A DNA stretch of 64,000 bases, from positions 26,114 through 90,113 of the IMG/VR virus record IMGVR_UViG_2795386110_000001. One strand, given 5' to 3'. The DNA comes from a virus. Its lineage: Duplodnaviria; Caudoviricetes. Shown here piece by piece: positions 29,922 through 58,467 of the stretch. Numbering within the stretch: the first letter of the stretch is position 1; each line of letters opens with the position of its first letter. Under the pieces are notes generated by a model. The model saw only the letters and a list, made by a program, of their open reading frames with translations, did not search any database and was not told the DNA's origin. The position numbers were made by a program, and so were the translations under genes.

Positions 29922-29987
29922 TAAGATGCCTTTTCAGTCGCTGGTTTAGGGCCGGACTCCTGCGAAGCATCAGGAGTCCCGTTCATG
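29922..29987 (+). promoter_or_regulatory. late promoter and conserved leader, copy 1
   Basis: TAAGAT; GTCGCTGGTTTAGGGCCGG; GGACTCCTG/CAGGAGTCC stem over the RBS. Confidence 0.85.
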
Positions 29988-31631
29988 CCCGAGCCGTTCG
30001 AGCTCCCAGACGACTTCAGCGCCCTGGACGACGAGCAGCTTGCCGACGCCCTTGCCGGCGCCGTCCAGGCCTTCGACGCCAAGGCCAAGTCCAGTCTCGT
30101 CACCCCCACCGACATCGAGGACCTGCGCTCCCTCGCCTCCGGCGTCGAGTCCATGCGCAAGGAGCAGCAGGACCGCATCGACGCCGCCAAGCAGGCCGCA
30201 GCGGAGATCGAGCAGCTCGCCGCGCAGGTTCGTGGCGACGACCCGTCCGCGACGGCCCCCGAGGTGGAAGAGCCCTCGGCGCAGGAGACTGCGGCGGCCG
30301 AGCCGGAGACCGCCCCGCAGCCCGAGCCGCAGGTATCCGCGTCCTCGACGCTGGTGAAGCGGCCGGTTCTCAACCTGGCCTCGGTGCGCGCCTCCCAGCC
30401 GCGCGTCCTGCCCGAGCCGCCCGCCCCGGGTACGCACATCACCGCGGCCGTAGACGTCCCCGGCTACACCCCGGGCGCCCCGCTCGACTTCGGGCAGGTC
30501 GTCACCGGCATCATCAGCCGCGCCAACGCCCTCAAGACGGCCGGCGGCGGCACGGGCCAGGTCATCAGCTACCGGCACCCGTTCCAGCAGGAGCTGATCG
30601 TCACCGACTCCAGCAGTGCGCCGGAGGGCACCACGGTGGCGATCGCCGCGCAGAACCAGGGGCGGCTCCCGCAGGGTGACCTCGTCGCCTCCGGTGGCTG
30701 GTGTGCGCCCTCGGAGACGCTGTACGACATCACCGGCGTGGCCTGCCCGGACATGCTGTGGGACGCCCCGGAGATCCAGCTCGCGCGCGGTGGCCTGCGC
30801 TACTACAAGCCGCTGTCCCTGGACGTCGGCAGCCTCACGTGGGTCCACACCGAAGCAGACGACATCTCCGGTGCGACGAAGCCGTGCTTCAAGATCCCCT
30901 GCCCGGACCCGGTGGAGGTCCGCTGTGACGCCGTCGGTGTCTGCCTGGAGGCAGGCATCCTGACTCAGCGGCACTTCCCGGAGCTGGTGGCCTGGTACCT
31001 GCGTAACAGCATGGTGGCGCACGAGATCCGCCTCAAGCAGGTCCTGTTCCAGCAGGCCCTCAACACCGCGACTCCGGTCGTGCTCGCGCCGAGCTTCGGC
31101 GCCCTGTCGGCGATCTACAACGCCGTGGCGCTCCAGGCTGCGGACATGATCGAGCGGCACAGCCTGTGTGACACGGTCGCGCTGGAGGTCGTGTTCCCGT
31201 GGTGGAGCCGCAACCTGTTCCTGGGTGACCTGGCCCGCCAGAACGGCGTCAACATCTGCGACCTGTCCCCGACCTGCATCCAGGACGTGTTCTCGACGCT
31301 CGGTGTGCGGGTGCAGTTCGCTCGCGGCCTGTCCCCGGCCGTCCCGGCGGACATCGGCGGCGCCAACGCGGCCACCGAGTGGCCGGCCACGGTCCAGTTC
31401 CTCGTCTACCCGTCGGGCTCCCTCCAGATCGGGCGCGGCGAGGAAGTCAACCTCGGTGTGGTTCACGATTCAACGAAGTTCGTGACCAACGACTACACCG
31501 CCCTCTTCGCGGAGGAGTGCGTCGCACTGGTCGACCGCTCCGTGGACACCCGCATCGTCACCGTCCCGGTCTGCCCGGACGGCGCCACCGGCGCGCAGCT
31601 GGAACTCGTCTGCGCCGCTGGCAGCAGCTGA
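29985..31631 (+). CDS. major capsid protein with N-terminal scaffold-like region
   Basis: Coiled-coil N-terminus; LVASGGWCAPSETLYD as in cluster-B-like capsids. Confidence 0.85.
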   Translation: MPEPFELPDDFSALDDEQLADALAGAVQAFDAKAKSSLVTPTDIEDLRSLASGVESMRKEQQDRIDAAKQAAAEIEQLAAQVRGDDPSATAPEVEEPSAQETAAAEPETAPQPEPQVSASSTLVKRPVLNLASVRASQPRVLPEPPAPGTHITAAVDVPGYTPGAPLDFGQVVTGIISRANALKTAGGGTGQVISYRHPFQQELIVTDSSSAPEGTTVAIAAQNQGRLPQGDLVASGGWCAPSETLYDITGVACPDMLWDAPEIQLARGGLRYYKPLSLDVGSLTWVHTEADDISGATKPCFKIPCPDPVEVRCDAVGVCLEAGILTQRHFPELVAWYLRNSMVAHEIRLKQVLFQQALNTATPVVLAPSFGALSAIYNAVALQAADMIERHSLCDTVALEVVFPWWSRNLFLGDLARQNGVNICDLSPTCIQDVFSTLGVRVQFARGLSPAVPADIGGANAATEWPATVQFLVYPSGSLQIGRGEEVNLGVVHDSTKFVTNDYTALFAEECVALVDRSVDTRIVTVPVCPDGATGAQLELVCAAGSS

Positions 31632-31703
31632 CCCACTTCACCCGACGCGTAACCCCGGCCCACTGCCCGGCCGGGGCTGCCCGGATGAGAGGAGGTGAGG
31701 CAG

Positions 31704-32531
31704 ATGCCAGCAGCCGGACTCGCTCGGCGCGTTGAGGCCATCCCCGGTACGCCGTTGCCGCACGGCATCCTCGGCGGCTGCGTCGACATCATCGACGTAG
31801 AGGACGTCCACGAACTCCTCGGCACCGAATGGATGCCGCTCTCGTGCGCCGCCGCACACGACTGGGACTGGTGCCCCGAGGACAGCACCACCCCCGGCCC
31901 GACCAGCAAGATCTTCGAACGGCCCGGCGTATGCTCCGCCTCGCCGATCACGATCTACGCCGGGGCCACCTGCGGCACCATCGGCTGGCCGTACGAGGAG
32001 GCCGTCCAGCACGCCCGCGAAACCCTCCGCATGGGCGAACAGCGCGCCCTGGAGGAATGGTTCGCCCGGGACGTGCTGTGTCCCATGGCCTCCGACCTCA
32101 CCCCCGCGGCCGGCGCCGTGTCCATCGCCCAGGGCGTCGCCGCACTCGAAGGGTGGCTCGCTGAGACGTACGGCGGACAGGGCATCCTGCACGTCCCCGC
32201 CGGAGCCGCCGCGCTGCTGGGCTGCTGCAACGTCGTCCACCTGGAGGACGGCGTCCCGCGCACCCTCATGGGCAACTGCGTGGTCATGGGCAGCGGCTAC
32301 GCCGTGAACGTCGGCCCGCCCGACTGCACCCAGGCCCCCGCCGGTGAAGCCTGGCTCTACATCACCGGCCCGATACGGGTCCGCCGCGAAGCCCCCGTCG
32401 TCGTCCCGGACACCGACGCCGAGAGCTTCCGCATCACGACCAACGACCGCTTCGTGCTGGCCGAGCGGTCGTTCGTCGTCGAGGTCGCCTGCTGCGAGGC
32501 CGCAGCGATCCGGGTGGTGCTGTGCCCGTGA
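31704..32531 (+). CDS. second capsid protein (pentamer-like)
   Basis: Follows the MCP; L..GEQRALE, GVAALE..L, G.LHVP, T..GN.VV.G.GY. Confidence 0.6.
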   Translation: MPAAGLARRVEAIPGTPLPHGILGGCVDIIDVEDVHELLGTEWMPLSCAAAHDWDWCPEDSTTPGPTSKIFERPGVCSASPITIYAGATCGTIGWPYEEAVQHARETLRMGEQRALEEWFARDVLCPMASDLTPAAGAVSIAQGVAALEGWLAETYGGQGILHVPAGAAALLGCCNVVHLEDGVPRTLMGNCVVMGSGYAVNVGPPDCTQAPAGEAWLYITGPIRVRREAPVVVPDTDAESFRITTNDRFVLAERSFVVEVACCEAAAIRVVLCP

Positions 32532-33040
32532 ACACGATCAAGGTTCAGCCGGTGCGGGACCTCCGCGTCGACTTCGCTCGCTGGGCGGTCGCTCAGACCC
32601 CGAAGGTCCGCACCTGCTCCACGTCCGAATTCGCGGTGCCCCCGCAACTGTTCACGCACATGCCGGAACGGCTCCTCGTCGGCTCGGTTGTCGACGGACA
32701 CCCGTACGTCTCCCCGGCCGGGGACGAGACACCGGAGCCGCTCACGACCATCCCCGGCGAGCCCCTGCCGCCCGTACCCGACTTCGCGTACCCGCCGGGC
32801 GCGGTCCCCCTGCCTGAGCAGGAACGGCAGTTGGCCACCACGAGCCCGGCAACTGTGGACGCCGCGAGGACGGCCGTCCTGGTCGCCGCCGACCTCGCGG
32901 CCACCAACCACGAGCAGCCGGCCGGGGCCGCGCCCTTGGAGGGGGAGGGCGCGGCCATCACCTGCGACGTCTGCGGGCGCCCCTTCGGCACTCCGCGCGG
33001 CAGGGACACCCACCGCCGCCAGGCACACCCGGAGGCATGA
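32528..33040 (+). CDS. hypothetical protein with C-terminal C2H2 zinc finger
   Basis: CDVCGRPF..RDTHRRQAH. Confidence 0.7.
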   Translation: MNTIKVQPVRDLRVDFARWAVAQTPKVRTCSTSEFAVPPQLFTHMPERLLVGSVVDGHPYVSPAGDETPEPLTTIPGEPLPPVPDFAYPPGAVPLPEQERQLATTSPATVDAARTAVLVAADLAATNHEQPAGAAPLEGEGAAITCDVCGRPFGTPRGRDTHRRQAHPEA

Positions 33041-33043
33041 CCG

Positions 33044-34666
33044 ATGGCCGTTGAGCCCATTCCGTGCGCACCCGGAGGCGACAGCACCCCGGTTGAGGTC
33101 AACGTCACCACGTGCTGCGCGCCCTCGATCGCCTCGGCAGCCCTGTGCCGCGAGGACGGCAGCACGATCCTCCTCGTCGTCCGGTCCGGGTGCGTCGAGT
33201 GCGGTGAGACAGCGCAGGACCCGGAAGTCGTCGGCTGGATCGACCCAGCCACCGGCGTCTTCACCCCGGGCGCGTCCCCGGCCGACGCAGGCCCCTGCGA
33301 CACGGGCTGTGCCGACACCATCTGCGTCCAGCGGTGTGACGACGTCGACGGGGACGGCAAGGCCGACACGACGTACAACGAGCTGTGGTGCGTCCGCCTC
33401 GACGGCAGCACGGAACTCGTCCTCACCTACCAGGGCGACCCCTCGCAGCCGTACGGGCCCGTCTCGCCCGTGGACTGCGAGTACAGGTGCGTCGAGACGC
33501 AGACGTACGTGCTGTGCGACGACAGCGGCGGCTTCCTGCGCCGCATCACCATCGGCGCCGGCCAGCACATCGTCGAGAACCTCGAACTGGACGGGCTCAC
33601 CCCGCACACCATCGTGGGCACGGTCCGGGTCTGCGGGGACAGCCCGGACACGACGAGCTGTGTCGACACCATCTGCGTGCAGCGCTGCGACGACACCGAC
33701 GGCGACGGCAAGGCCGACACGACGTACAACGAGCTGTGGTGCGTCCACGCCGACGGCACGACCGAGCTGATCCTGACCTACCAGGACGACCCGGCCGAGC
33801 CGTACGGGCCAGCCTCGCCCGTGGACTGCGAGTACGGGTGCGTCGAGACACAGACGTACATGCTGTGCGACGCCTCCGGGGCGTTCCTGCGCCGGATCAC
33901 CATTGGCGCCGGACAGCACATCGTGGAAGACCTCGCGCTGGACGGACTGACCCCGCACACCGTCACGGGCACCGTCGGCGCGTGCGCCGGCGCCACCAGC
34001 GTGACCGCGACGCCGGGCCAGGACCTGACAGTCCTGTGCGACACCGCCGCCGACGGCACGGTCACCGAGTTCGTACGGGACTACCAACGCGACGCGGCCG
34101 GGAAGATCACCGGACACAGCGACTACACCCTCGACGGCCAGCCGTACACCCCGACCGGCACCGTCGGCGTGTGCGGGCCCACCCCCGACTGCCCGGTGCA
34201 GTCAGTGCTCCAGGAGTGCCGGTGCGACGACACCAACGGCGACGGCACCCCCGACGTCGGGTACGTGGAGCTCCTCGCCGTCGACTGCACCGGCACGGTC
34301 ACCACCATCGGCACCTACACCGACGACCTCGGCGCTCCGTACACGCCGGTCTCGCCCGTCGACTGCGACGCCGGAGACGACGAGGGCGCTGACCCCGCGT
34401 TCGGTGTGCAGGCCCGCCGCGCCCAGCTCAACCCGGGCGACACCTGGTCTGCCGACCGCTTCCCGACGCTGCAAGCCGTCACCGCTACCGCGTTCGGCGG
34501 CACCGGCACGATCACCACCGCAGACGGCGCCAGCACCTTGCACGACGGCGAGGCCGCCACCTGGAGCGTCATCCGGGACTCCGACGCCTCGCTCACCGGG
34601 CCGCTCACCATCCACGCGGACACCGGAACCCTCTCCGTCACCTACACCCTGGGAGTCCAGCTATGA
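33044..34666 (+). CDS. Cys-rich modular virion/decoration protein with DxDGDG motifs
   Basis: Two 117-aa repeats; DVDGDG, DTDGDG, DTNGDG. Confidence 0.75.
   Translation: MAVEPIPCAPGGDSTPVEVNVTTCCAPSIASAALCREDGSTILLVVRSGCVECGETAQDPEVVGWIDPATGVFTPGASPADAGPCDTGCADTICVQRCDDVDGDGKADTTYNELWCVRLDGSTELVLTYQGDPSQPYGPVSPVDCEYRCVETQTYVLCDDSGGFLRRITIGAGQHIVENLELDGLTPHTIVGTVRVCGDSPDTTSCVDTICVQRCDDTDGDGKADTTYNELWCVHADGTTELILTYQDDPAEPYGPASPVDCEYGCVETQTYMLCDASGAFLRRITIGAGQHIVEDLALDGLTPHTVTGTVGACAGATSVTATPGQDLTVLCDTAADGTVTEFVRDYQRDAAGKITGHSDYTLDGQPYTPTGTVGVCGPTPDCPVQSVLQECRCDDTNGDGTPDVGYVELLAVDCTGTVTTIGTYTDDLGAPYTPVSPVDCDAGDDEGADPAFGVQARRAQLNPGDTWSADRFPTLQAVTATAFGGTGTITTADGASTLHDGEAATWSVIRDSDASLTGPLTIHADTGTLSVTYTLGVQL
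33308..33985 (+). repeat. intragenic tandem duplication, period 351 bp
   Basis: Units start at 33308 and 33659 (CxDTICVQRCDD..). Confidence 0.85.
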
Positions 34667-35214
34667 GCGGATGCTGCGGGCCGATCCTCACCAGCAGCGG
34701 CACCGGAACCGGCAACACCGACCCGATCACGGACGTCGAGTACGTGACCCTGTGCGACGTCGCCGCCGACGGCACCGCCACCGCCTTCCTCCGCCGCTTC
34801 ACGCACGCACAGGACGGCACCCTGTCCAGCACGGCGGACCTGGCGCTCGACGGCCGTACGGCCTACACCCCGGCCGGCACCGTCGGTGTCTGCTCGGGCA
34901 GCACGAGCACTCAGCCGGTCACGACTCAGACGGCTTCGACGCACCGGCAGGTCCTCAGCACCGCGGGCACGTTCGACGTGTTCGGGGCCGCGACCGGCAC
35001 CGTCGAGTCGGTCACCGTGACCGTCATCTCCACCGGCACCGCGGGCCCCTCGGTGACGACCGCCTCGGGGACCTCCCGCCTCTACGGCGGCGAATCCGTC
35101 ACCTGGTCCGCGCTGCCCGACGTCGCGGCCGGGTCGGACGAGCTCACCGGCCCGCTGTCCGTGACGACCACTGCCGGGGACGTCGTCGCCGTGTCGTGGA
35201 CCGAACGCCCCTGA
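34663..35214 (+). CDS. modular virion protein paralog
   Basis: LCDVAADGT..FLRR..ALDG..YTPAGTVGVC module. Confidence 0.75.
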   Translation: MSGCCGPILTSSGTGTGNTDPITDVEYVTLCDVAADGTATAFLRRFTHAQDGTLSSTADLALDGRTAYTPAGTVGVCSGSTSTQPVTTQTASTHRQVLSTAGTFDVFGAATGTVESVTVTVISTGTAGPSVTTASGTSRLYGGESVTWSALPDVAAGSDELTGPLSVTTTAGDVVAVSWTERP

Positions 35215-40100: not shown

Positions 40101-41081
40101 TCAGTCCTTGTCGGCCCGGCCGGGAGGGATCAGGACGTCCGCCGAGTTGGTCAACCCCGTGTTGTACTCATTGACGATGAGCCGTGCGAGGGGGGCAGAG
40201 CGGGAGGACGAGCCGCCGCCGCCGACCGTGTTCGCGATGGACGACTCCTTCCACTGCGCGACCGTGATCGGCTTGCGCGTGCCGTGACCGGCAAGCTTCG
40301 CGCTGAGCCGGTCGAGCCGGGCACCGGGGTTGCGGTCGAGGACCATCGCGACGGCGCGCAGCATGATCCCCTCCCACGTCGCGGGGTTGCGGCCCCACGC
40401 GTCCTCGACGACCCGCAGCACCTGTGGGATCAGCGGGGACCGCTCCTCCGGGAGGACAAGGGGGTAGATCAGGCTCCCGCTCTCGTCCCGGTCGGCGTGT
40501 TTCTCGTCCATCACCGCGATGGAGGTGAGCGCCTGGACGGCGCCGATCTTGTTCGCCGAGGTGCTGCCCGAGATGCCGAGAGCGCAGCTCTCGACCTCGG
40601 TGAGGATCCGGGTATTACGCGGGTCGCCAGCGGTGATCGAGACGCGGAAGATGTCGAACGGCTTCACGGCCTTGCGGTCGCGGTTCGCGGCGAGGAACAA
40701 CTTCGCCTCCTGCTCGTCGGTGAGCCCTTCGTAGACCATGCAGTCCCGGAGGAAGTCCGGGCCCTCCTTCGCGACCGCCACCTCCGTGGAGTGCTGACCG
40801 TCGAGGAGGTAGTACCGGCCGTCCTCCCTGAGGGAGACGATCGCCGGGAGTAGCGCGAAGGGATCCCACATCTTCGTGAGCCGTGCCGTCCACGCGGCGT
40901 CCTTCTTCCGCTGCGTGGCCGGGCCGGCGTCCTCGCTGGTGATAGTGCCGAACAGGCGGGCTGAGTCGAGGGTCTGATCGACGTGCAGGTCCCCAACGGG
41001 GATCTCGTCGTAGAACTTCCGGACGGTCTTCGTCGCTCCGGCCTGTGCCGGAACGGTGACCTTCTCGTCGGCGCGTGCCAC
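40101..41081 (-). CDS. ParB/Srx-like protein (DUF6551-like)
   Basis: IVSLREDGRYYLLDGQH..EAKLF..N; RBS GGGGGA before GTG 41081 (alternative ATG 41123). Confidence 0.7.
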   Translation of the reverse strand: MARADEKVTVPAQAGATKTVRKFYDEIPVGDLHVDQTLDSARLFGTITSEDAGPATQRKKDAAWTARLTKMWDPFALLPAIVSLREDGRYYLLDGQHSTEVAVAKEGPDFLRDCMVYEGLTDEQEAKLFLAANRDRKAVKPFDIFRVSITAGDPRNTRILTEVESCALGISGSTSANKIGAVQALTSIAVMDEKHADRDESGSLIYPLVLPEERSPLIPQVLRVVEDAWGRNPATWEGIMLRAVAMVLDRNPGARLDRLSAKLAGHGTRKPITVAQWKESSIANTVGGGGSSSRSAPLARLIVNEYNTGLTNSADVLIPPGRADKD

Positions 41082-41217
41082 GCGTCCCCCTTGGTAGTGG
41101 TCAGGTGACACACAGTCAACCATGGGGATTTCTCGCGCGTCAAATTCTCTGACGCTTTGGGATTTCTCGCGTTCCCGGCGCGGTCTCATGGCTCCCTGCG
41201 GCGGCGGGTCACCTGGC

Positions 41218-41282
41218 TAGACTGGTGCCAAGTCGCTGGTTATGGGCCGGACTCCTGCGAGACACCAGGAGTCCAGGGCATG
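41218..41282 (+). promoter_or_regulatory. late promoter and conserved leader, copy 2
   Basis: TAGACT; GTCGCTGGTTATGGGCCGG; GGACTCCTG/CAGGAGTCC stem. Confidence 0.85.
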
Positions 41283-46164: not shown

Positions 46165-46244
46165 TACCCTTCGGGATACGCCGCTGGTTGTGGGCCGGGC
46201 GAGGAGCGGACCCAGGGGAAGACCCGTGCGTAAGTCCTTTGCCC
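46165..46244 (+). promoter_or_regulatory. late promoter and conserved leader, copy 3
   Basis: TACCCT; GCCGCTGGTTGTGGGCCGGGC; GGGCGAGGA/TCCTTTGCCC stem enclosing GTG 46226. Confidence 0.8.
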
Positions 46245-46989: not shown

Positions 46990-46994
46990 GCGGA

Positions 46995-47084
46995 TAGTCT
47001 GGAGACCACGGCAGGCGCTCACGCGCGGCCGTAGCCGCTGGTTTTGGGCCGGGCAACCACACGCGAAAGCGGGGTTGCCCGGTG
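46995..47084 (+). promoter_or_regulatory. late leader, copy 4
   Basis: TAGTCT lies further upstream; GCCGCTGGTTTTGGGCCGGGC; CCGGGCAACC/GGTTGCCCGG stem ends on the G of GTG. Confidence 0.8.
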
Positions 47085-50000
47085 GCCGGCGAGGACGAGG
47101 ACTACGGGTCCGCCCGGATCACGATCACGCTGGACGACAGCGGGATCGTCCGGGACGCACGCGACCTCGGCATCCGCATTCAGCGGGCGCTCGACCGCGC
47201 GACGCGCAACGTCGGCGACCAGATCCGGCGGAACATCCAGCGCGGCCTCAACGCCGCCTCGGTCACCGTCCGAGTCGACCCCGATCTCCGGCGGTTCGAC
47301 GCGCAGCTCCTCAACGGGCTCCGCTCGCTCGACTCGATCAATGTCCCGGTCGCCCCCGACCTGACCGGGTTCGTCGAGCGGATCCGCGCCCTGCTCGCCG
47401 GCGAAGAGGTGAGCATCCGGGTCGTCCCGGACCTGGACGATTTCGACGCGCGGATCCGCGCGCACAACGTCCCCGACGTCACCGTTCACGCGAACGTCGA
47501 CGTCGACAGCGACCGGTTCACCCGGGCGCTCGCCGGGCTTTCCGGCATCGCCGGGCGTACCGGTGCCGCGCTCACGTCCGCGCTGCGGTTCGGCGTCCTC
47601 GGCGTCGCGGCGGCCGGCGCCGCCCAGGGCGTCATCACGCTGACGGCGGCTCTCGCACCGGCCGCCGGGATCGTCGCCGCCTTCCCCGCAGTGCTCGCCG
47701 GGGCCAAGGTGGCGCTGGGTACCCTCCGGCTCGCCGTCCTCGGCGTCAGCGACGCGCTGTCGGCCGCGCTCGCGGGTGACGCGGCGAAGTTCCAGGAGTC
47801 GCTGGAGAAGCTCGCCCCGGCCGCGCAACAGGCCGTCATCGCCGTCCGCGACCTGGCGCCGGAGCTGACGCGGGTCCAGCAGTCCATCCAGCAGGCGTTC
47901 TTCGCCCAGTTCGCCGGTGACGTCAAGGCAGCGATCACCAACCTGCTGCCGCTGCGGACGGAGCTCGCTGGCCTCGCGACCGAGTTCGGGAAGGCCGCCG
48001 ACGAGGGCCTGAAGTTCGCGGCGTCGCAGCAGGCCGTCGGGCCGCTGCGCTCGATCATCCAGGGCACCACGCAGGCCGCCTCCGGGCTGCAAGCCGTCGT
48101 CGCCCCCCTGGCGAAAGGCTTCCTCGACGTCGCCGCGGCGGTCTCGCAGGCCTTCGGGTCGCAAGTCGCCAGCGTCATCGCTCAGGTAGGCGCGCAGGTC
48201 GGGACGTTCCTGTCGGAGTTCGCCGCCTCGGGCCGGGCGGTCGAAGCGGTACGGGGTGCGGTCGGCGTCTTCCAGCAGCTCGGCGCGATCGCCTCGAACG
48301 TCGGGCAGATCCTGTCCAGCGTCTTCTCCGCCGCGAGCGGTGCGGGCGGCGGGCTGCTCAACAACCTCCAGACGATCACGGGGGCGTTCCGTGGCTTCGT
48401 CCAGAGCGCGGCCGGTCAGGAGGCGATCGGGAACGTCTTCAAGACGATCGGGACGGTTGCCGCCCAGCTCGGGCCGATCCTGTCCGCGCTCGTCACACAG
48501 CTCGGGCAGATCGCGCCCGCGCTCGCCCCGGTCTTCTCGACCTTGGGCCCGGCGATCACCGGGGTCATCAACGCGCTCGGGCCCGCCCTGGCGGCGATCG
48601 CCCCCAGTCTTCAGACCGTCGCGTCCGCGCTCGCGGAGGCCTTCGCCGCCATAGGGCCGTCCCTCCGCCCCGTCGGCGAGGCTATCGGCTCCATCGTCCA
48701 GGCGATTGCCCTGCTGCTGCCGCTCGCCGGGCAACTCGTCGCGACGTTGGCGCAGATGCTCGCGCCGGTTCTGCAGAACCTCGCGACGCTGTTCACGCCG
48801 ATCATCCAGGCCCTGGTCGGCGCGCTCATGCCGGTCCTGCCGCAGATCGCCCAGGCGTTCTCGCTGCTGGCTACGGCGATGCAACCGCTCGCGGCCGGCG
48901 TCGGGCAGGCGATAGCTCAGCTCTTCCAGAGCCTCGCCCCGGTCCTGTCGACGCTGGCCGGCGCCCTGGTGCAGGTGGCGACCGCGCTCGTCCCGGTCTA
49001 CCAGGCCCTCGCGGACGCGCTGCTGCCCGTCCTGCCGGCGATCGTTCAGGCTTTCGACGCGATCCTTCAGGCGCTCATGCCGCTGGTCCCATCGCTCGTC
49101 GGGCTCGTCGAAGCGCTGGCGCCGCTGGTGGTGCAGATCCTCCAGCTCCTGGGGCCGGTCTTGCAGATCGCGGTCGCGTTCGCGGGGTGGACCGTGATCA
49201 ACGTCGTCGTCCCGATCATTCAGGGTGTCGTCGGGGCGATCACCGGGCTCGTCTCCATCCTGACGGGAGCCGTCACGTTCATCACGAACCTGCCGACCTT
49301 CATCGTCACCGCGCTCACCACGCTGGGGACGACGATCTCCACGTTCTTCACGACGCTCGTCACCACCGTCACGACGTGGTTCACGACTGGGTTCCAGGCG
49401 GTCGTCGGGTTCTTCACCTCACTGCCCGGCATGATCATGTCGGCGCTGGCCGCGCTGCCAGGGCTGCTCGTCAACCTGTTCGTCCAGGCGGTCGCCGCCG
49501 TCGGTATCGCGCTGCTGACCGCGATCGCCGGGATCGTGTTCATCTTCACCGAGCTGCCCGGCCGCATCCTCACCGCGCTGTCCACGCTCGGGTCGGTGAT
49601 CCTGTCCACGTTCACGTCCGCCTTCAACACGGCACGCGCCGCGATCTCCTCGTTCATCTCCTCGGCGGCCTCATTCTTCGCGCAGCTGCCGGGCCGGATC
49701 GTCAGCGTGCTCGCCGCGCTGCCCGGCCGGCTGGCGTCGGTGTTCCGCTCGGCCGGCTCCAGCGCGCTGTCCGCTGCCCGCTCCGTCGGCTCGTCCATCG
49801 TGTCGTTCTTCTCGGGCCTGCCCGGCCGCATCGTCTCTGCCCTGTCGGGGCTCGGGTCGCGGCTCGCGGGCGTCTTCCGGTCGGCGCTGGGCAGCGTGAC
49901 CGGCGCGGTGAGTTCGATGATCTCCGGGATCGTCAGCATGTTCTCCGGCCTGCCCGGAAGGATTGTCGGCGCTCTCGGCAACATCGGCTCGCGGATCATG

Positions 50001-50337: not shown

Positions 50338-50398
50338 TAAGCTGAGGGGCGCCGCTGGTTGTGGGCCGGGCACCTTTCCGAACTAGGGGTGTCACGTG
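50338..50398 (+). promoter_or_regulatory. late promoter and conserved leader, copy 5
   Basis: TAAGCT; GCCGCTGGTTGTGGGCCGGGC; GGCACCTTT/AGGGGTGTC stem. Confidence 0.85.
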
Positions 50399-51936: not shown

Positions 51937-52251
51937 GTGGCAATCCGTAAGAGCGTGGAGGAGACCCTGGTCGTCGCTGGAGAACGCGACGAGTGGCTCA
52001 CCCGCTGCGCCAAGGGCCTCATGACCGCCGGATTCAAGGACGTACGGACGAGTACGGTCCTTGGGCAGGTGACTGGCGCATACAAGACGTTTTCGACCAA
52101 TGGCGAGTTGATCATCACCGTGGTGCCGAGTGGACATTCAGGGCACACCCAACTCACGCTCCGCTCGACTGCGGCGGTTGACAACCTCTATGCCTTGTTC
52201 GCCAGCCCGAACAAGAAGATCCTCGCGACCGCGAAGGCTAGCTTCGAATGA
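51937..52251 (+). CDS. hypothetical cargo protein
   Basis: RBS GAGGAG, lower GC. Confidence 0.6.
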   Translation: MAIRKSVEETLVVAGERDEWLTRCAKGLMTAGFKDVRTSTVLGQVTGAYKTFSTNGELIITVVPSGHSGHTQLTLRSTAAVDNLYALFASPNKKILATAKASFE

Positions 52252-52574
52252 GCGCGGCACCGGTTGAACAGTCCCCAACCAAGCTCTGCTCCGCTTGTGG
52301 AACTCTCACGCAAACAGTCAAGACCTTCTGCCCTGAGTGCGGCACCGCATATGGTGAGCCAGGCGGCGGCAGATCGGCAAGCTTCGTCTGGGGCGCCTTT
52401 GCTTGCGCAGCAGTATCCCTGCTCTTCTTTCCCATCGTTCTCGGGCCTCTCGCCATAGTGCTGTCGGTACTCGCAATGAAGCGGAAGGAGTCGCACGCCG
52501 CCCTGGCCCTGGGCCTTTCCGTTGCAGGCATGGTGTTCGGCTTCATCCTCGGCGCCTTGGCCTTCAGTTCCTAG
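52248..52574 (+). CDS. zinc-ribbon plus DUF4190-like membrane protein
   Basis: CSACG..FCPECG; PIVLGPLAIVL; several TM segments. Confidence 0.7.
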   Translation: MSAAPVEQSPTKLCSACGTLTQTVKTFCPECGTAYGEPGGGRSASFVWGAFACAAVSLLFFPIVLGPLAIVLSVLAMKRKESHAALALGLSVAGMVFGFILGALAFSS

Positions 52575-52726: not shown

Positions 52727-53434
52727 ATGGCTGGCAAGAAGGCGATCGTTGGCGTTGTCATTGCGCTGGCGACGGTAGGGGCCTGCATGGCTCACGGGTC
52801 CACCCCCGCCAGCAGCAAGGATCCCGTCAACAGCAAGGGCCCGTCCGCGAGTAAGCACCCGGCCGCAAAAAAGAGACCGAAGGCAAGTGATTCGCCGAGC
52901 ACACCGCCGGCTGGAACCGACTTGCGTTTCAGCGGAGACATTAAGGGAAGCACTCGCGGGGCGCTGAAGGTACTCCACGGCAAGAGCGGGGCCCACTACG
53001 ATTACATCGTGCCCGATGGTGCCACGCAGTGCGTGATGCCCGCTGATGACGGCGCCTGGGAAGCACAGTTCACGGTGCGCATGAACGGCATCGGCTGGGA
53101 GATCTCCATCGGAAATGGCGCCTCCTTCGGTTCTCCGAAGCCAGGCAGGCACTTTGCGGTGTACGACGCCGATACGAACGGCGAGTCGGGCGTGCTGACC
53201 TTCGACATTGCCTCGGACAAGGCTCCAAGTAGCGTCGTGCTTGGTAACGGGATTGGGAAGTTCCAGTACGTCTACTACCTCCCTGAAGATCACAATAAGG
53301 GCAGAGCATTGGTCACGATCGACCACGGACTGACCTCCGGCACTCTGGACGCCTGGCTTGCCCCTTGGGAGCAGGAGAACGACCAGGAGAAGCCGCTGTT
53401 CCACATCACTGGCCGCTGGGCCTGTAACGGTTAA
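52727..53434 (+). CDS. putative lipoprotein
   Basis: MAGKKAIVGVVIALATVGA-C signal/lipobox, Pro/Ser/Lys linker. Confidence 0.65.
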   Translation: MAGKKAIVGVVIALATVGACMAHGSTPASSKDPVNSKGPSASKHPAAKKRPKASDSPSTPPAGTDLRFSGDIKGSTRGALKVLHGKSGAHYDYIVPDGATQCVMPADDGAWEAQFTVRMNGIGWEISIGNGASFGSPKPGRHFAVYDADTNGESGVLTFDIASDKAPSSVVLGNGIGKFQYVYYLPEDHNKGRALVTIDHGLTSGTLDAWLAPWEQENDQEKPLFHITGRWACNG

Positions 53435-53527
53435 GCACCGCGTAGTCCGAGCGTCTTTGCCGGGAGCTGTTTCGGGGCGAGTGATCGCCGCCGTGTAAGC
53501 GGGTCGGGCGGTCTGCGGACCACGCCT

Positions 53528-53588
53528 TAGCCTGGTGTGGCGCCGCTGGTTTTGGGCCGGGCCTCCTTCTCCCACAGGGGGCCCGTTG
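53528..53588 (+). promoter_or_regulatory. late promoter and conserved leader, copy 6
   Basis: TAGCCT; GCCGCTGGTTTTGGGCCGGGC; CGGGCCTCCT/AGGGGGCCCG stem abutting TTG. Confidence 0.85.
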
Positions 53589-54611
53589 TCTTCAGCAGGG
53601 TGTGGCGTCCACTCGGCCTACATCGTTGACCGCGGCGGCTCGGTCGTGACGCCGGCGAACATGCTGGTGTCCGTCGACTGGACGAGGATCTTGGACGACG
53701 TGAGCACGGCGCACGTCGTGGTCATCCCGGACGGCGACTGCTGCGCCCAACTCGGCAACGTCCGCACCTGGCGACACAAGCTGGTCCTCGCCCGCGATGG
53801 TGTCACCGTGTGGGAGGGGCCGATCATCCAAGCCGAGTGGTCCTTCGGGAAGGTGGAGCTGTGGGCCTCCGACATCCTGGTCTGGCTTGACCGGCGAGTC
53901 CCTCACCAGTCGATCGTCTTCGACGGCTCCGACCTCACCGACATCGCGAACTGGCTGATTGAGGACGCGTTCGCGCCGGACGACCCCGGCCACACGGTGG
54001 ACATCCTCAACCCTTCCGGTGTGGAGGGAGGACGGCAGTACACCGAGGACATCGGGCAGACCGGCGATCACCTCCGCGATCTCGCGGACACCGGCCTTGA
54101 CTACACGGCCATCGGCTCCACGATCGTCCTCATGCCGGAGGACTGGGACGCGAGCGTCGGCATGCTGACGGACGTCGACTTTCCCGAGGGCCTGGTCGTC
54201 GCCGAGGACGGCTCCGCCCTCGCGACCCGCTACATCGTGCACGGCGACGACGACAGCGGCGTCAAGGGCGTCTCGGGCGGCACGGACTCCTACTACGGGC
54301 TCCTCGAACGCAGCGTCGAGGAGACCTCGGTGACGACGAACGCCTCGGCGGCATCGGCGGCGCGGTCGAAGCGGGCGGCGGCCTACCCGGTGCCGGTGTT
54401 CCTCAGCTCCGACGAGGTGACCTTGTCGCCGGAGGCCGCGGTGGACGTGGCCAAGCTCGTGCCGGGCTGGTGCGTGGACGTCGCCACCGCGGCGACCTGC
54501 CGGCCACTGCGGCAGCGGCTCAAGATCGGCGGCGTGAAGGTCTCGGAAGACGGCGACGGCGAGAGCGTCCAAGTCACGCTGGCGCCCTTGAGTAGCGATC
54601 TGGGGGACTGA
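53586..54611 (+). CDS. minor tail protein (hub/Tal-like)
   Basis: W.R.LDDVS.A, RDG..VWEGPI, GLDYT.IG, LVPG. Confidence 0.75.
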
Positions 54612-55279
54612 TGGCGGCGAGAGGATCCGCGGCACGGCGCACGATGGACAACCCCATGGGCGGCGCCCTGCGCGACCTGAACCGCAAGTCCCGGACGCTG
54701 TCCAGGAAGCCGGGAAGACGCGGGCCCCAGGGGGAGCAGGGCGTACCGGGACCGGAGGGTGAGCGAGGTGTGCCGGGGCCCCGGGGTGAGCCAGGTCCCC
54801 GAGGTGAGCAAGGGGTACCGGGCTCGCTTGGCCCGCCCGGAGAGCGAGGTGTGCCGGGGCCGGCGGGTGTGCCGGGACTGCCTGGCCCGCCTGGTGAGCG
54901 GGGCCCGCAGGGCGAGCAAGGCGTGCCGGGACAAGGTGTGCCCGGTCCGCCTGGTGAGCGGGGCGAGCAGGGGCCGCCCGGACCACGCGGTGCGGCGCCT
55001 GCTGCCGCAGTCATCACGACGGCTGCGGACGGCCGCGTGACCTGGACGTACGCCAAGCCGTTCGCGGCGGCCCCGGTGATCAGTGCGCTACCTGTCGACC
55101 CCAACCCGGGCGATGACCGCGCGGTGACGGTGACCTTGGAACAGGTCACTGTCTCGAGCGCGACGGTCCGCGTGTGGCGGACGCAGCCGCTCCTCGGCTT
55201 GGGCCTGTTGCCGCTGCTGCCTGCCGGGGCCGGGGTGCAGGTGCACGTCACCGCGAGCGGCGAGCCAGCCGATATCTGA
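54611..55279 (+). CDS. collagen-like (Gly-X-Y) fibre protein
   Basis: About 30 GXY triplets. Confidence 0.85.
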
Positions 55280-55287
55280 CTGGCACG

Positions 55288-55357
55288 TACCCTTTCGGTG
55301 CCGCTGGTTTTGGGCCGGGCACCGAGTCGGATTCATGGGGTGATTTCGGGTGGCCCG
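55288..55357 (+). promoter_or_regulatory. late promoter and conserved leader, copy 7
   Basis: TACCCT; GCCGCTGGTTTTGGGCCGGGC; stem pairs with GGGTGGCCCG over GTG 55350. Confidence 0.85.
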
Positions 55358-56069
55358 CGCGTGCGTGTGTGACGACTACTTCACTGTCTCTGAGAGCGGT
55401 GAACTGTGCCTGAAGCCGGGGACGATGGGCCTGCGGCAGATCCTCTACTACAGCACTCCGGGGACGTACACCTTCCGCAAGGCGTCGTATCCGTGGCTCG
55501 CTCGTGTCCGGGTGAAGGTCCAGGGCGCTGGTGGTGGTTCGGCTGGCGCGAACGCGGACAGCGGCGAGGCGATCGCACGGCCGGGCGGGACCGGGGGCGC
55601 CTACGGCGAGTCGCTCATCAACGCGTCGGCGCTCGGCACGAGCGAGACGATCATCGTCGGTGCGGGCGGCGACGCGGGCGGCGCGAGCTCCGACGGCGAT
55701 GACGGCGGCGCGTCGCAGTTCGGCGGCTTCATCAACGCACCTGGCGGGTACGGCGGTACGTCGAACATGCCGTCAGGCACAACCGCGAACACTTCGGCGG
55801 GCATCAACGGGCCGAACGCGGGGACCGGCAACTTCCGTGCCGGTGGTGGCGCCTCGGGCGCCTCGATCCGGTTGACCGGCGGTTTCGCGGTGGCAGGGGA
55901 GGGCGGCGACAGCATGCTCGGCACGGGTGGCCGTGGCCGTACGACAGAGGGTAACGGAGACTCCCCCCGCGGCAGCGGAGGCGGCGCTGGCGGGGGCCTC
56001 TCCTTCGGCGGCGACATCGACGGTGGCACGGGCGGCAACGGCATCGTCATCATCGAGCTCTACGGGTGA
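55350..56069 (+). CDS. glycine-rich tail fibre domain protein
   Basis: PGTYTF..V.VQGAGGG..GG.GGNGIVIIE. Confidence 0.8.
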   Translation: MARACVCDDYFTVSESGELCLKPGTMGLRQILYYSTPGTYTFRKASYPWLARVRVKVQGAGGGSAGANADSGEAIARPGGTGGAYGESLINASALGTSETIIVGAGGDAGGASSDGDDGGASQFGGFINAPGGYGGTSNMPSGTTANTSAGINGPNAGTGNFRAGGGASGASIRLTGGFAVAGEGGDSMLGTGGRGRTTEGNGDSPRGSGGGAGGGLSFGGDIDGGTGGNGIVIIELYG

Positions 56070-56101
56070 TGAGCAGCCGAGGCTGGCACAAGGGGCCCCC
56101 G

Positions 56102-56168
56102 TAGACTGACGTTCAGCCGCTGGTTCTGGGCCGGGCCGGATCACCTCGAAAGGGTGGGCATCTTGGCC
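56102..56168 (+). promoter_or_regulatory. late promoter and conserved leader, copy 8
   Basis: TAGACT; GCCGCTGGTTCTGGGCCGGGC; GGCCGGAT/ATCTTGGCC stem. Confidence 0.85.
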
Positions 56169-57005
56169 AGGTGTCAGTGCGGCGGTGACGGCTGCAACTG
56201 CGTTGTCATCGCCGGTGAGAACGCCGAGGTGACGGGTGCTGGAAGCACCCTGAACCCCTATGTGGTGTCGGCCGTCATCGACTGTGAGGACGTCCGGCCG
56301 TGCCTGTCCGCCGGGGACGGCATCGCCTACGACTCCTCGACGGGCATCATCACAGCCTGCCCATCGGCCGACACGGGCAACAACCTCACGTACGGGTCGG
56401 ACGGCTGCCTGTTCGTGCCCACGGGCGCGGCGACCGTATCCGTCGGCTGCGGCCTCCAGGGCGATGGTTCCGGAAGCGCCCCCGTGGAGACCAACGTTGC
56501 CGCCTGGCCGTTCAGCTGCGGCATCTCGGCGAACGGCGGCGGTGTCTACTGCGACCCGAGCACCGGTCAGCTGAAGACCGACCCGCCGTTTCGGGCCCGC
56601 TACCGCGAGGTGGGTATCAACGACGCGTTCGCCGCGCGCACGGTACCGAGCGCTGAGACGACGGTGGACACGATCAGCGTCAGCCTGGCCAACCCGGACC
56701 CGTGCCGGGCCGCGTTCGTGATCGTGCACCGGACGGTTGATGTGGACTTCAACCTCCCGGCCAACGGAGGCGCGGCAGCGTCAGGCATCAACGGTGACGA
56801 CGTCAACTACATGAGGAACTCCGGCAGCACGGCCATCACGGCATGGCACGGGCAGCACAGCGTGATGCACAACGTCACCATCCCGGCCGGCGGCACTCAG
56901 GCGATCCCCCTGAACATCACGGTCGGGCGGGGTGCCGGTGGCGCCACCTATACCCGCATTCAGGCCACCATCCGAGCCTGGCTGTTCTCCATCCCTCTGA
57001 GCTGA
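56163..57005 (+). CDS. Cys-rich tail fibre/receptor-binding protein (start TTG 56163 or GTG 56154)
   Basis: ARCQCGGDGCNC, G.GS..NPYVVS, GCGL.GDGS. Confidence 0.7.
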   Translation: MARCQCGGDGCNCVVIAGENAEVTGAGSTLNPYVVSAVIDCEDVRPCLSAGDGIAYDSSTGIITACPSADTGNNLTYGSDGCLFVPTGAATVSVGCGLQGDGSGSAPVETNVAAWPFSCGISANGGGVYCDPSTGQLKTDPPFRARYREVGINDAFAARTVPSAETTVDTISVSLANPDPCRAAFVIVHRTVDVDFNLPANGGAAASGINGDDVNYMRNSGSTAITAWHGQHSVMHNVTIPAGGTQAIPLNITVGRGAGGATYTRIQATIRAWLFSIPLS

Positions 57006-57019
57006 TCGGGGCCCGTGCT

Positions 57020-57334
57020 GTGGACGAGACCACGACGACGACGCGCTACTACCAGTTCGATGACGGGCGTCTGCGTGAAGTGACGCTGTTGGACGGTGTG
57101 AGCGTGTCCGTCCCCGACGGCGCGGTCAGGCTTAGCGCCGAGGAGTACGCGGCCGCGCTCGGCGTGATCGAGCAGGAGCGCGCCGCGGCAGAGGCGGCGG
57201 TCCAGGAGGAACAGGAGGCCGAGGCCAGGAGTGCGTACCTTGCGCTCGTCGCGATCCTGCCGGAAGCAGTGGCCCGTCGCCTGTCCGGCTACCAGGGGAC
57301 CGGCGTAGATCCTGTGCAGGTGCTGGAAAGCTAG
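57020..57334 (+). CDS. putative fibre chaperone
   Basis: YYQFDDG..EEY..AY.ALV..LSGY; paralog of 58091-58381. Confidence 0.6.
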   Translation: MDETTTTTRYYQFDDGRLREVTLLDGVSVSVPDGAVRLSAEEYAAALGVIEQERAAAEAAVQEEQEAEARSAYLALVAILPEAVARRLSGYQGTGVDPVQVLES

Positions 57335-57400
57335 ACTCCTGGTAGCCGCTGGTTCTGGGCCGGGCGAGGCGCTCTGATAGGGAGTGGTCCCCTTGGCCTG
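57332..57400 (+). promoter_or_regulatory. late promoter and conserved leader, copy 9
   Basis: TAGACT; GCCGCTGGTTCTGGGCCGGGC; GGGCGAGG pairs with CCTTGGCCT over TTG 57393. Confidence 0.85.
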
Positions 57401-58079
57401 TTGCGGTGGTGCCCGAGGGTGCACCTGCACCGTCACTGCGGGGTCGGGTGTCGAGGTCGACGGCAGCGGCAGCACCTCGAACCCCTACGTCGTCAGCTCA
57501 ACCGGTGCCGTCGCCGCGACGGGGTGCGGGCTCACGGGCGACGGTTCTACTGGTACGCCTCTCTCTGCGGCGGTTGGGACCTGGCCGTACGCGTGCGACG
57601 TCGACGACCAGGGCGGCGGCGTCTACTGCGATAGCTCGGGCGTCCTGCGTACCGACCCGCCGGTGCGCCAGGACAACTTCTCGAACGCCATCAACCAGGT
57701 CCAGAGCCCGGCGCTGGCAGTTCCGACAGTGGCCGAGCGGACCATCCGGCAGCTGACGTTGACCGTGACCAACCCGGACCCGTGCCGTGTCGCGCAGGGG
57801 ATTCTGTTCCGGGAGGTCGATCTCGACTTCAACCTGCCTCCCGGTGCGGGCGCCATGGCCGGCATCGACGGCGACGACATGAACTACCTCGCCAACGGCG
57901 GTGACACCACGGTCTTCGCGGTCCACTCGCAGGACAACAAGATCACCCCGTTCACGCTGAACCCCGGCGAGACGCGGACGATCACGATGGACATCGACGC
58001 CGGCCGTGGATCCAACGGCGCCACGATCCCCCGCATTCAGGCCACGCTCCGCGCGTGGGTGTTCTCCAACCCGCAGTAA
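57393..58079 (+). CDS. Cys-rich tail fibre paralog
   Basis: ACCGGARGCTC; shares GGGVYCD, TDPP, NPDPCR, DFNLP and RIQAT.RAW with 56163-57005. Confidence 0.75.
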   Translation: MACCGGARGCTCTVTAGSGVEVDGSGSTSNPYVVSSTGAVAATGCGLTGDGSTGTPLSAAVGTWPYACDVDDQGGGVYCDSSGVLRTDPPVRQDNFSNAINQVQSPALAVPTVAERTIRQLTLTVTNPDPCRVAQGILFREVDLDFNLPPGAGAMAGIDGDDMNYLANGGDTTVFAVHSQDNKITPFTLNPGETRTITMDIDAGRGSNGATIPRIQATLRAWVFSNPQ

Positions 58080-58090
58080 GGGGCCGAGCC

Positions 58091-58381
58091 ATGGCAGCAG
58101 AGCAGACGTTCTACTACGAGTTCCCCGACGGCGCCGTTCAGGAGCGCGTCACCAGCGAGGCCAGCCCGCAGCACCCTGCGGACGCCACGCTGCTGACCGA
58201 GGACGAGTACAACAGCAAGCGGCAGGCGGTCGAGGCAGCCCTAGAGCAGAACCAGGCCGACATCCAGGCGCAGGAGACCGCGCGGAAGAAGGCGGCGTAC
58301 AACGCACTGGTGGCGGGCGGATTCGACACGGGCGTCGCGCAGACCCTCTCTGGCTACACCCCGCCTCAGCCGATGCGCTGA
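58091..58381 (+). CDS. putative fibre chaperone paralog
   Basis: YYEFPDG..DEY..AY.ALV..LSGY. Confidence 0.65.
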   Translation: MAAEQTFYYEFPDGAVQERVTSEASPQHPADATLLTEDEYNSKRQAVEAALEQNQADIQAQETARKKAAYNALVAGGFDTGVAQTLSGYTPPQPMR

Positions 58382-58402
58382 GACAACGACTTGGGGAGCG
58401 CT

Positions 58403-58467
58403 TACACTCCCGTTCTGAGCTGCTGGTTTTGGGCCGGGCCTCCTCACCCGAAGGGGGTCTGACCGTG
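58403..58467 (+). promoter_or_regulatory. late promoter and conserved leader, copy 10
   Basis: TACACT; GCTGCTGGTTTTGGGCCGGGC; GGGCCTCCT/AGGGGGTCT stem. Confidence 0.85.

Follow-up and report, generated by a model that had tools for sequence, protein, structure and literature searches.

A predicted RNA hairpin, linked to promoters and ribosome-binding sites, recurs before the late genes of actinobacteriophages

Late genes of the provirus in IMG/VR record IMGVR_UViG_2795386110_000001 (Duplodnaviria; Caudoviricetes) are preceded by a recurrent 19-nucleotide (nt) motif, GYYGCTGGTTNNGGGCCGG. We analysed this element in a 64,000-nt stretch (hereafter the window), comprising bases 26114–90113 of the 90,113-bp record. 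Here we report the in silico characterization of the repeat, which is associated with a −10 promoter box, folds into a small hairpin (P1) supported by covariation, overlaps a second structure (P2) that pairs with the Shine–Dalgarno (SD) sequence, and has a phage-specific distribution. Our tentatively favoured interpretation is that the P1/P2 leaders form a translational switch of late genes, of the kind known from Com and mom of phage Mu. We infer the transcription start, the existence and identity of a trans-acting factor, and the direction of its effect (activation over repression or stabilization).

Ten late units in the provirus

A sequence-only reading of the window had placed ten copies of the motif on the + strand, about 45–50 nt before late-gene starts. 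A search for the 19-mer with up to two mismatches allowed confirmed all ten, each with zero mismatches, starting at 29937, 41232, 46180, 47034, 50351, 53542, 55300, 56116, 57345 and 58419 (+); the chance expectation is 0.16, and none of 100 shuffles reached ten. The 16-nt core GCTGGTTNNGGGCCGG has ten forward and no reverse matches in the whole record (reversed control, zero), and all ten copies are confined to the late region of the provirus. A covariance model built from relatives scores the ten sites at 33–42 bits, and the next match at 14.6 bits. The motif begins 44–50 nt before the start codons, as the reading had it, and the codon opening a long frame lies 25–31 nt past the motif end, counting the TTG codons at 56163 and 57393. 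The downstream genes had also been named correctly as capsid, tail, chaperone-position, tape measure, fibre and endolysin genes. No P1 copy lies at the terminase, portal or MuF–protease fusion genes of the window, all of which are upstream.

The first unit (29922–29987; all ten units are on the + strand) leads to the major head protein (phrog_777) and consists of the −10 hexamer TAAGAT (29922–29927), P1 in its GUC...GAC variant (29937–29957) and an ATG at 29985. Its P2, GGACUCCUG/CAGGAGUCC, lies over the SD sequence, with a predicted SD pairing probability of 0.90 and a covariance model score of 33.1 bits. The second unit (41218–41282), that of the major tail protein, is built alike (TAGACT, 41218–41223; P1, 41232–41252, also GUC...GAC; ATG, 41280), with P2 over the SD sequence, an SD pairing of 0.91 and 35.0 bits. 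The third (46165–46228) precedes phrog_12617, which occupies the tail assembly chaperone position; TACCCT (46165–46170) and P1 (46180–46200) are followed by a weak P2 (SD pairing 0.49; 35.2 bits) and a GTG at 46226. In the fourth unit (46995–47084), that of the tape measure protein, the nearest TAnnnT sequence is TAGTCT (46995–47000), 33 nt upstream of P1 (47034–47054), and the start codon is the GTG at 47082. Its P2, CCGGGCAACC/GGUUGCCCGG, is strong (−28.8 kcal/mol; SD pairing 0.89), and this copy, which was outside the model's training set, scores 40.3 bits.

The fifth unit (50338–50398) belongs to phrog_838, a 446-aa tail protein, and comprises TAAGCT (50338–50343), P1 (50351–50371), the P2 arms GGCACCUUU/AGGGGUGUC and a GTG at 50396 (SD pairing 0.65; 41.2 bits). 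The minor tail protein phrog_837 follows from the sixth unit (53528–53588), with TAGCCT (53528–53533), P1 (53542–53562), P2 CGGGCCUCCU/AGGGGGCCCG and a TTG at 53586 (0.60; 41.9 bits). The Gly-rich tail fibre (PF21722) has the seventh (55288–55352), in which TACCCT (55288–55293) and P1 (55300–55320) are accompanied by a weak P2 (0.49; 38.2 bits) before the GTG at 55350. The eighth unit (56102–56165) leads to a Cys-rich protein of unknown function that has 21 P1-led homologues in other phages. It carries TAGACT (56102–56107), P1 (56116–56136), the short P2 CACCU/AGGGUG (0.69; 35.1 bits) and a TTG at 56163, or alternatively a GTG at 56154. The ninth (57332–57395), again before a protein of unknown function, has TAGACT (57332–57337), P1 (57345–57365), P2 over the SD sequence (0.65; 37.5 bits) and a TTG at 57393 or a GTG at 57384. 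The tenth (58403–58467) precedes the amidase endolysin, with TACACT (58403–58408), P1 as GCU...GGC containing a U.G pair (58419–58439), P2 GGCCUCCU/AGGGGGUC (0.90; 38.5 bits) and a GTG at 58465.

Covariation of the P1 hairpin

The sequence-only reading had proposed that the core can fold as CUGGUU-NNG-GGCCGG. Folded alone, the motif plus two further bases adopts the structure (((.(.((((...)))))))). at about −7 kcal/mol, and comparative data support this fold and extend it by four covarying pairs that had escaped the reading, three of them closing pairs and one a C:G pair. P1 spans 21 nt. Reading inward, a covarying 3-bp closing helix, in which the three bases before the core pair with the last core base and the two that follow it, is succeeded by a bulged G, a single C:G pair and a bulged U; next comes a GGUU/GGCC helix containing two G.U pairs, and NNG forms the loop.

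In a gap-free alignment of 125 distinct copies from related phages, 98.5% of the cells of this eight-pair structure are paired, compared with 94.6% after shuffling and 20–60% when the partners are slid as a control. Changes on both sides of a pair occupy 41 cells, against 6.6 expected; none of 500 shuffles, a control that ignores relatedness, reached 41. Compensatory changes occur in four of the eight pairs, and 15 of the 17 haplotypes at these four variable pairs are fully paired, including those with the inner C:G pair replaced by A:U or U:A. Closing position −2/+1 is C:G in 104 copies, U:A in 12, and U.G and G.U in one each, and position −3/+2 is G:C in 107, A:U in seven, G.U in two and other combinations in two. 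The GG/CC pairs were set by the search pattern and are uninformative on covariation. The two G.U pairs are kept in 112 and 111 of the 125 copies, with C:G instead in 13 and two, and the inner one is unpaired in 12 further copies that have the class II loop form described below.

As a control for pattern bias, we collected the regions upstream of 78 capsid homologues picked by protein similarity. Among 62 distinct sequences, all except the two most distant (28–29% capsid identity) contain the motif or a variant of it. In these variants, A:U replaces C2:G15 in two lineages and U:A replaces it in a third, U:A is found at the last closing pair, and C:G stands in place of the two U.G pairs. With a relaxed pattern, in which seven core positions were free and only a −10 box and a frame served as filters, 155 copies were recovered, and positions 2 and 15 hold only the pairable combinations C/G, A/U and U/A. 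RNAalifold predicted P1 unaided from 42 capsid leaders obtained by protein homology, with pair 1–21 as GC in 21 sequences and AU in 20.

Because the conserved G.U pairs correspond to C.A mismatches on the other strand, which cannot pair in duplex DNA, selection acts on the sense-strand RNA. Both GUC/GAC and GCC/GGC closing forms occur within this one window, a coexistence that is not expected from a symmetric DNA-binding protein. These patterns bear on the idea that the motif is a double-stranded DNA operator, akin to stoperators, at which a repressor or late regulator sitting at +1 to +20 would block or license the ten promoters. In favour of this idea, the site lacks symmetry and always has the same orientation, it is found in short gaps between genes, where it overlaps the predicted transcription start, and the structural module encodes a classical C2H2 finger, usually a DNA binder. 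However, recognition of duplex DNA does not select for pairing preserved through G.U and compensatory changes or explain different closing pairs within one phage; the motif is also present in lytic relatives such as YDN12; and its spacing from the −10 box varies (9–15 nt), which is loose for a promoter-embedded operator. We therefore regard a DNA operator as highly improbable, and P1 is very probably a functional RNA hairpin.

The sequence-only reading did not recognize the motif as a described family, and our searches agree. At the gathering score, Rfam 15 gave no match to the motif in the whole window, and the region 55200–58520, which holds four copies, gave none at E-values up to 5. The sole Rfam match in the window lies elsewhere, on the minus strand: it is a Guanidine-II (mini-ykkC) match at 47417–47463 (−), antisense within the tape measure gene. 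It scores 33.5 bits (gathering score, 32), and chance is its most likely origin, the model being small. The element is likewise undescribed in the searchable literature, covering main texts on Streptomyces phage late promoters and motifs, the motif letters and phage TurkishDelight; the phiC31 late promoter (Howe and Smith 1996) was not compared.

The reading had further suggested a small RNA (sRNA) or a ligand as the partner of the leader, and P1 could also be a neutral repeat kept by recombination between gene modules, given that conserved gene-boundary sequences can promote phage mosaicism. Known ligand pockets require more RNA than a 21-nt hairpin with its 3-nt loop provides, the record has no antisense copy of the core, no Rfam family matches, and the compensatory changes indicate selection on the RNA fold rather than a neutral repeat. 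Given the 21-nt length of P1 and the missing antisense copy, a ligand or sRNA partner is unlikely, and this group of explanations taken together has only a very remote chance of being correct.

A −10 box adjoining P1

Nine of the ten copies have a TAnnnT box ending 6–10 nt before the motif, exactly as had been noticed earlier. For statistics we used 176 family copies defined without use of the −10 box, with 20,000 random positions as a control: a TAnnnT sequence ends 6–15 nt before the core in 136 of the 176 copies and at 0.65% of the random positions. A G two bases upstream of the hexamer (position −14) is present in 71% of the family copies and in five of the ten window copies. We found no −35 signal in the family copies, and a sigma-70 consensus scan was empty. 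The leader promoter looks like an extended −10, −35-less type with the consensus G-n-TAnnnT, presumably served by the housekeeping sigma factor. The usual distance from the hexamer to the transcription start is 6–8 nt; applied to the observed −10 spacing, it would have the transcript begin about 0–5 nt before P1. The earlier proposal that the motif forms the 5′ end of the transcript thus gains support from the adjoining box, as judged from spacing.

This placement raises the possibility that P1 acts on the transcribing RNA polymerase, in the manner of the HK022 put sites or the HIV trans-activation response (TAR) element, with the nascent hairpin binding the polymerase, or bringing a factor to it, and rendering elongation along the long late units resistant to pausing or termination. 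P1 stands immediately past the promoter in 136 of the 176 copies, the same core is found across host orders, as expected if it addresses a conserved host machine such as RNA polymerase, and no universal phage regulator was found outside the structural module. Terminator-like sites between the units (12, against 6.4 ± 2.7 expected), however, are not beyond chance, and none lies convincingly at a gene end. P1 itself never precedes a T run, as a terminator or attenuator would, and a terminator scan flags only P2 of copy 6. Moreover, the spacing of P1 is tied to the start codon and not to the promoter alone, and its interplay with the SD hairpin would be superfluous. An action on polymerase is improbable.

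P2 and its competition with P1

The sequence past P1 differs from gene to gene and typically contains a CUCC-like stretch that pairs with a GGAG-like SD sequence. The four anti-ribosome-binding-site stems quoted in the sequence-only reading are present, but its statement that the stem always pairs over the ribosome-binding site (RBS) was too strong, as SD pairing varies among leaders. The predicted pairing probability of the SD window is 0.89–0.91 in four of the ten window leaders, 0.60–0.69 in another four and 0.49 in two.

Across the family, the P2 segment (the last four P1 core bases plus 32 nt; 36 nt in all) has a mean folding energy of −14.2 kcal/mol, compared with −10.8 kcal/mol for random windows of the same loci (p 8.6e-13). 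Native P2 arm pairs average −13.3, compared with −10.5 when arms are swapped between leaders (p 7.6e-9), and 48% of the native pairs but 18% of the swapped ones are at or below −14. The mean SD pairing probability is 0.70 in native leaders, 0.61 when the 5′ arm and loop are shuffled and 0.53 when P1 is forced; values above 0.7 occur in 50%, 19% (5′ arm shuffled) and 5% of leaders, respectively. SD occlusion is only moderately above background and missing from some leaders, and P2 is real in a large subset of leaders, not in all. P2 was missed when MAFFT and RNAalifold were applied to the 42 capsid leaders, its arms varying in both sequence and length; folding energies and swapped arms were used to assess it instead.

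The minimum free energy fold pairs three or all four of the P1 3′-strand nucleotides with downstream sequence in 67 of 111 leaders, which bears out the earlier suggestion that P1 competes with the anti-SD stem. As this strand is also the 5′ base of P2, full P1 and full P2 are mutually exclusive. Forcing P1 costs about 7 kcal/mol on average, P2 being the more stable partner. Selection has kept P1 although it loses thermodynamically, which is the signature of a structure that either folds first as the RNA is being transcribed or depends on a partner to hold it. As at the Mu mom leader, a hairpin lies immediately 5′ of an SD-sequestering structure, here in silico.

P1 leaders in phages and host genomes

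Among isolated phages, the temperate Streptomyces phage TurkishDelight is closest: its capsid protein is 71.5% identical, and its DNA is similar over just 9% of the late region. The motif precedes its capsid, tail tube, chaperone and tape measure genes as well as three genes for minor tail proteins or fibres, with tandem copies at two of these sites. The annotated start of its gene 33 (30557) falls inside the P1 motif (30550–30573); the deposited start is probably too far upstream, as the leader pattern points to an ATG about 24 nt past the motif.

An exact-pattern scan of public viral contigs found at least 118 stretches. Of 167 distinct copies from the viral matches listed and the window, 89 have a −10 box and a downstream frame, 29 are family-like and 49 chance-like. 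In bacterial genomes, a 20-base version of the pattern occurs in at least 120 stretches. Among the matches listed, most are from Streptomyces and others from Kitasatospora, Embleya, Actinacidiphila, Nonomuraea, Planomonospora, Planotetraspora, Sphaerisporangium and Micromonospora. Of 22 related virus records, 20 contain the motif or a variant of it, with the copies almost always confined to one strand (9/0, 10/0 or 0/10, for instance), whereas a control pattern occurs 0–3 times per strand in the 22 records. In three complete host chromosomes, for which 150 first-look candidates were scored per genome, every match of at least 33 bits lies inside one 17–25-kb stretch and on one strand, and elsewhere there are only two weak matches of about 28–29 bits. 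This single-stretch, single-strand clustering, together with the distribution in virus records, indicates by sequence that the element is phage-specific and not a host regulatory motif.

Of 164 distinct proteins encoded downstream of P1, 61 match the capsid protein, 21 the type encoded at 56163, 18 the tail tube, 15 the Gly-rich fibre, 13 the chaperone, ten the tape measure and ten three other tail genes, and 16 resemble no late protein of the window. None of the 164 matches portal, MuF–protease or terminase. The distance from P1 to the start codon is 25–35 nt across the family leaders.

Woodruffvirus phages similar to YDN12 have a class II form of the motif, GCUGGCGNUAGGCCGG, after a TATCAT box, and no integrase or immunity repressor is annotated in the stretches examined of their records, phiSAJS1 and Xkcd426 included. 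We considered two motif classes with two specificities and dropped the idea, as class I and class II motifs coexist in single phages (records G005 and G010). In one provirus (record G020), all seven sites share the variant core GCTGGCCAGGGGCCGG, in which both G.U pairs have become C:G, suggesting a concerted change of the copies within one genome. The two distant relatives with 28–29% capsid identity have no P1; before their capsid gene, about 100 nt ahead of position 1501 in the loci concerned (L206 and L207), stands a tandem hairpin-like motif, GGAC-GGCUGGGGCC-GC-GUC, instead. This second motif (GGGCTGGRGCCG) was rejected as a repeated element, since it forms only the tandem pair before the capsid gene and is elsewhere at chance level.

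A candidate partner encoded behind the capsid gene

The capsid unit also encodes a candidate trans-acting partner, a 172-aa protein (phrog_30321; 32522–33040, +) whose gene is translationally coupled and lies two genes beyond that of the capsid; it is annotated as hypothetical in all 14 phage records with a match. It has a conserved 65-residue N-terminal domain, a disordered, acidic and proline-rich linker, and a C-terminal CxxC-x12-H-x4-H sequence of the classical C2H2 zinc-finger type. In the predicted structure (mean predicted local distance difference test score 82.5), this tail superimposes on Zif268-type fingers at 0.5–0.9 Å over 23–25 residues, with E-values that are not significant for such a small domain, and a fold search found no solved relative of the N-terminal domain (no matches at E up to 0.001). 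A homologue is present in all nine other P1-bearing phage or provirus genomes checked whole or nearly whole, and none was detected in the two distant relatives that lack P1. Among complete capsid-adjacent homologues beside a class I motif, 26 of 28 have the finger by pattern, and one of the other two has CxxxxC spacing. The finger residues could not be matched by eye to the P1 variants.

Pfam searches of 50 open reading frames (ORFs) of the record found no Com family, and the sole finger protein found was this C2H2 protein, which is not homologous to Com; the early-region ORFs gave only helix-turn-helix proteins, methylases and similar families. A tblastn comparison of every ORF of the record with seven related genomes found counterparts in all seven for structural-module genes only. 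Any such factor is probably phage-encoded, with the C2H2 protein as the one candidate found; we treat the latter as a lead only.

A possible translational switch

In the switch that we tentatively favour, each late unit would begin with a −10-only promoter, and its transcript would start at or within a few nucleotides of P1. The 3′ arm of P2 would hide the SD sequence, P2 outcompeting P1 thermodynamically. A factor would then recognize the sequence-invariant P1 core and hold P1 closed, so that P2 would be shortened and the SD sequence exposed, as Com does at the Mu mom leader, and the switch would operate simultaneously on all abundant virion and lysis mRNAs. Three features of P1 point to translation, and not only to transcription or stability: its bulges, G.U pairs and loop G are invariant, its distance from the start codon is fixed, and it shares a strand with P2. 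The more specific proposal that the structural-module C2H2 protein (32522–33040) binds P1 at about ten late mRNAs, flips the P1/P2 balance and frees the RBSs is rather unlikely.

Several observations weigh against this interpretation. The tape measure copy, with its nearest TAnnnT box 33 nt upstream, is an exception to the promoter rule, and some phages have tandem P1 copies, so P1 in places works away from the 5′ end and from P2; the placement of P1 at the 5′ end is itself read from spacing. These two features fit a stabilizer, a processing site or a platform at least as well as a switch. P2 is not universal: two of the ten window leaders, and about half of all leaders, do no better in SD pairing than shuffled ones. 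Since forcing P1 is costly, a factor would have to pay for its closure. Some of the P1 covariation may be inherited and not independent. With regard to the partner, no universal non-structural protein was found across the seven related genomes, and a host partner (RNA polymerase, ribosome or RNase) is for that reason equally possible. None of the 11 complete capsid-adjacent homologues beside a class II motif has the finger, a basic PRKRAARK-like stretch taking its place; phiSAJS1 and Xkcd426 combine class II motifs with such finger-less homologues. The split between finger and motif class is essentially one evolutionary event, with both classes occurring within single phages, and the link between zinc finger and P1 is phylogenetically confounded because both travel in one structural module.

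These points give some weight to another reading, in which P1 is a 5′-terminal stabilizer or processing signal, lying at the extreme 5′ end or brought there by cleavage, that counters 5′-end-dependent decay of the abundant late mRNAs by RNase J or RNase E, and P2 is an ordinary structured RBS. P1 starts 6–10 nt past the −10 box, within about 0–4 nt of the start expected from the usual spacing, and it is limited to the proteins needed in greatest abundance, with portal, terminase and protease excluded; its occurrence without a close −10 box at the tape measure gene, and in tandem, is as expected for a processing site. A stabilizer needs only a stem, yet the core of bulge, G.U pairs and loop G is identical across several actinobacterial orders, and the tight 25–35-nt spacing to the start codon and the systematic sharing of the P1 3′ strand with P2 would be left unexplained. 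We give this reading a modest chance of being right.

Other genes in the window

The window contains several further genes. One at 28374–29765 (−) is likely a prophage-borne abortive-infection (defence) gene: it encodes 463 aa with AbiJ N-terminal domain 3 (PF18860, E 5e-38) and lies within a 2-kb insert of lower G+C content (0.64) between the MuF–protease gene and the capsid promoter. Another apparent insertion into the late region is the gene of a 362-aa ParB-like/DUF6551 protein (40101–41189, −), which ends just before the tail tube promoter. Tail genes also flank a lower-GC stretch that encodes a small zinc-ribbon/DUF4190 membrane-type protein (52248–52574, +), and a collagen-repeat protein (PF01391, E 1.3e-15; 54611–55279, +) follows the minor tail gene. 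Upstream of the terminase, the gene at 13700–15112 (+) encodes a phage DAM-like domain 1 and a phage GNAT-like domain (PF22555, PF22559) and is preceded by a ParB-like protein and two DNA methyltransferase-like genes (3543–4826, 5251–6078 and 6960–8702); as a set, these genes resemble a DNA-modification island. A 413-aa PIN_12-domain protein (19742–20983, −), encoded between terminase and portal and the counterpart of TurkishDelight gp5 (39% identity), may be an RNase.

Relation to known systems and significance

The stoperators of Cluster A mycobacteriophages are numerous asymmetric sites in short intergenic gaps, oriented with transcription, that are bound as duplex DNA by the repressor and occur in both genome arms. 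All ten P1 copies similarly lie on the + strand in gaps before genes; unlike stoperators, P1 is restricted to the late genes, persists in lytic relatives and has the evolutionary pattern of an RNA helix. In HK022, put is a structured RNA just past the transcription start that acts on the elongation of the same transcript. P1 shares with put and TAR a structured RNA made immediately after the (here predicted) start, but it is much smaller, precedes about ten genes and is tied to the RBS in spacing and pairing. The MS2 coat protein, at the replicase hairpin, and T4 RegA, at its sites, are phage proteins that repress by binding over the start site. P1, too, is a small hairpin at a translation initiation region, where in those systems a phage protein sets the translation of several mRNAs, but it lies upstream of the SD sequence, and its closure is predicted to open, not cover, that sequence. 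Stoperators, put, TAR, and the coat-protein and RegA operators each have only one feature in common with the P1 element.

The nearest described phenomenon in actinophages is that of the start-associated sequence (SAS) and extended start-associated sequence (ESAS) of Cluster K mycobacteriophages. In PMC3203893, which mentions Cluster A stoperators in passing, SAS is a 13-bp sequence, GGGATAGGAGCCC, located 3–7 bp from the start, containing the SD sequence and serving only non-structural genes; the ESAS inverted repeats show no RNA-type compensation there, and the authors favour DNA binding. SAS/ESAS and P1 are both short asymmetric repeats in one orientation, at a fixed distance before a subset of starts, absent from the host and of unknown function (PMC3203893). 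P1 nevertheless differs in sequence, in its distance of 25–31 nt from the start, in lying outside the SD sequence and after a −10 box, in showing compensation, and in that all ten copies precede virion or lysis genes.

In mechanism, the comparison is with Mu. As described in PMC6483171, the small zinc-finger protein Com, a C4 finger of about 62 aa, binds a short hairpin beside a translation-inhibition structure, which opens; that source also draws the comparison with TAR. As in com/mom so described, P1 abuts and overlaps an SD-hiding structure, and a zinc-finger protein is encoded nearby. By contrast, Mu has one such gene and the present phages ten units each, P1 apparently sits at the transcript 5′ end beside its own promoter, and the candidate is an unrelated 172-aa C2H2 protein, whose binding and activating roles are putative.

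A leader hairpin coupled to SD sequestration is a known kind of element; its promoter-linked, regulon-wide and widely conserved form here is new. Late gene control in actinobacteriophages is largely unknown, and P1 provides a sharply defined cis element with covariation support that stands outside Rfam. At about ten copies per genome, it occurs in many records, both temperate proviruses and isolated phages, including the lytic-type Woodruffvirus, and it spans Streptomyces and at least eight other actinobacterial genera. A short cassette of promoter and leader, driving as it does the most abundant phage proteins, would also be of use for expression in Streptomyces. Should the zinc-finger protein prove to be the partner, it would represent a new class of phage RNA-binding regulator: a C2H2–P1 licence would tie production of every abundant virion and lysis protein to a single phage RNA-binding protein. 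That protein would be the first Com-like activator of an entire late regulon, and the first case of a eukaryote-type C2H2 finger with a role in controlling phage RNA.

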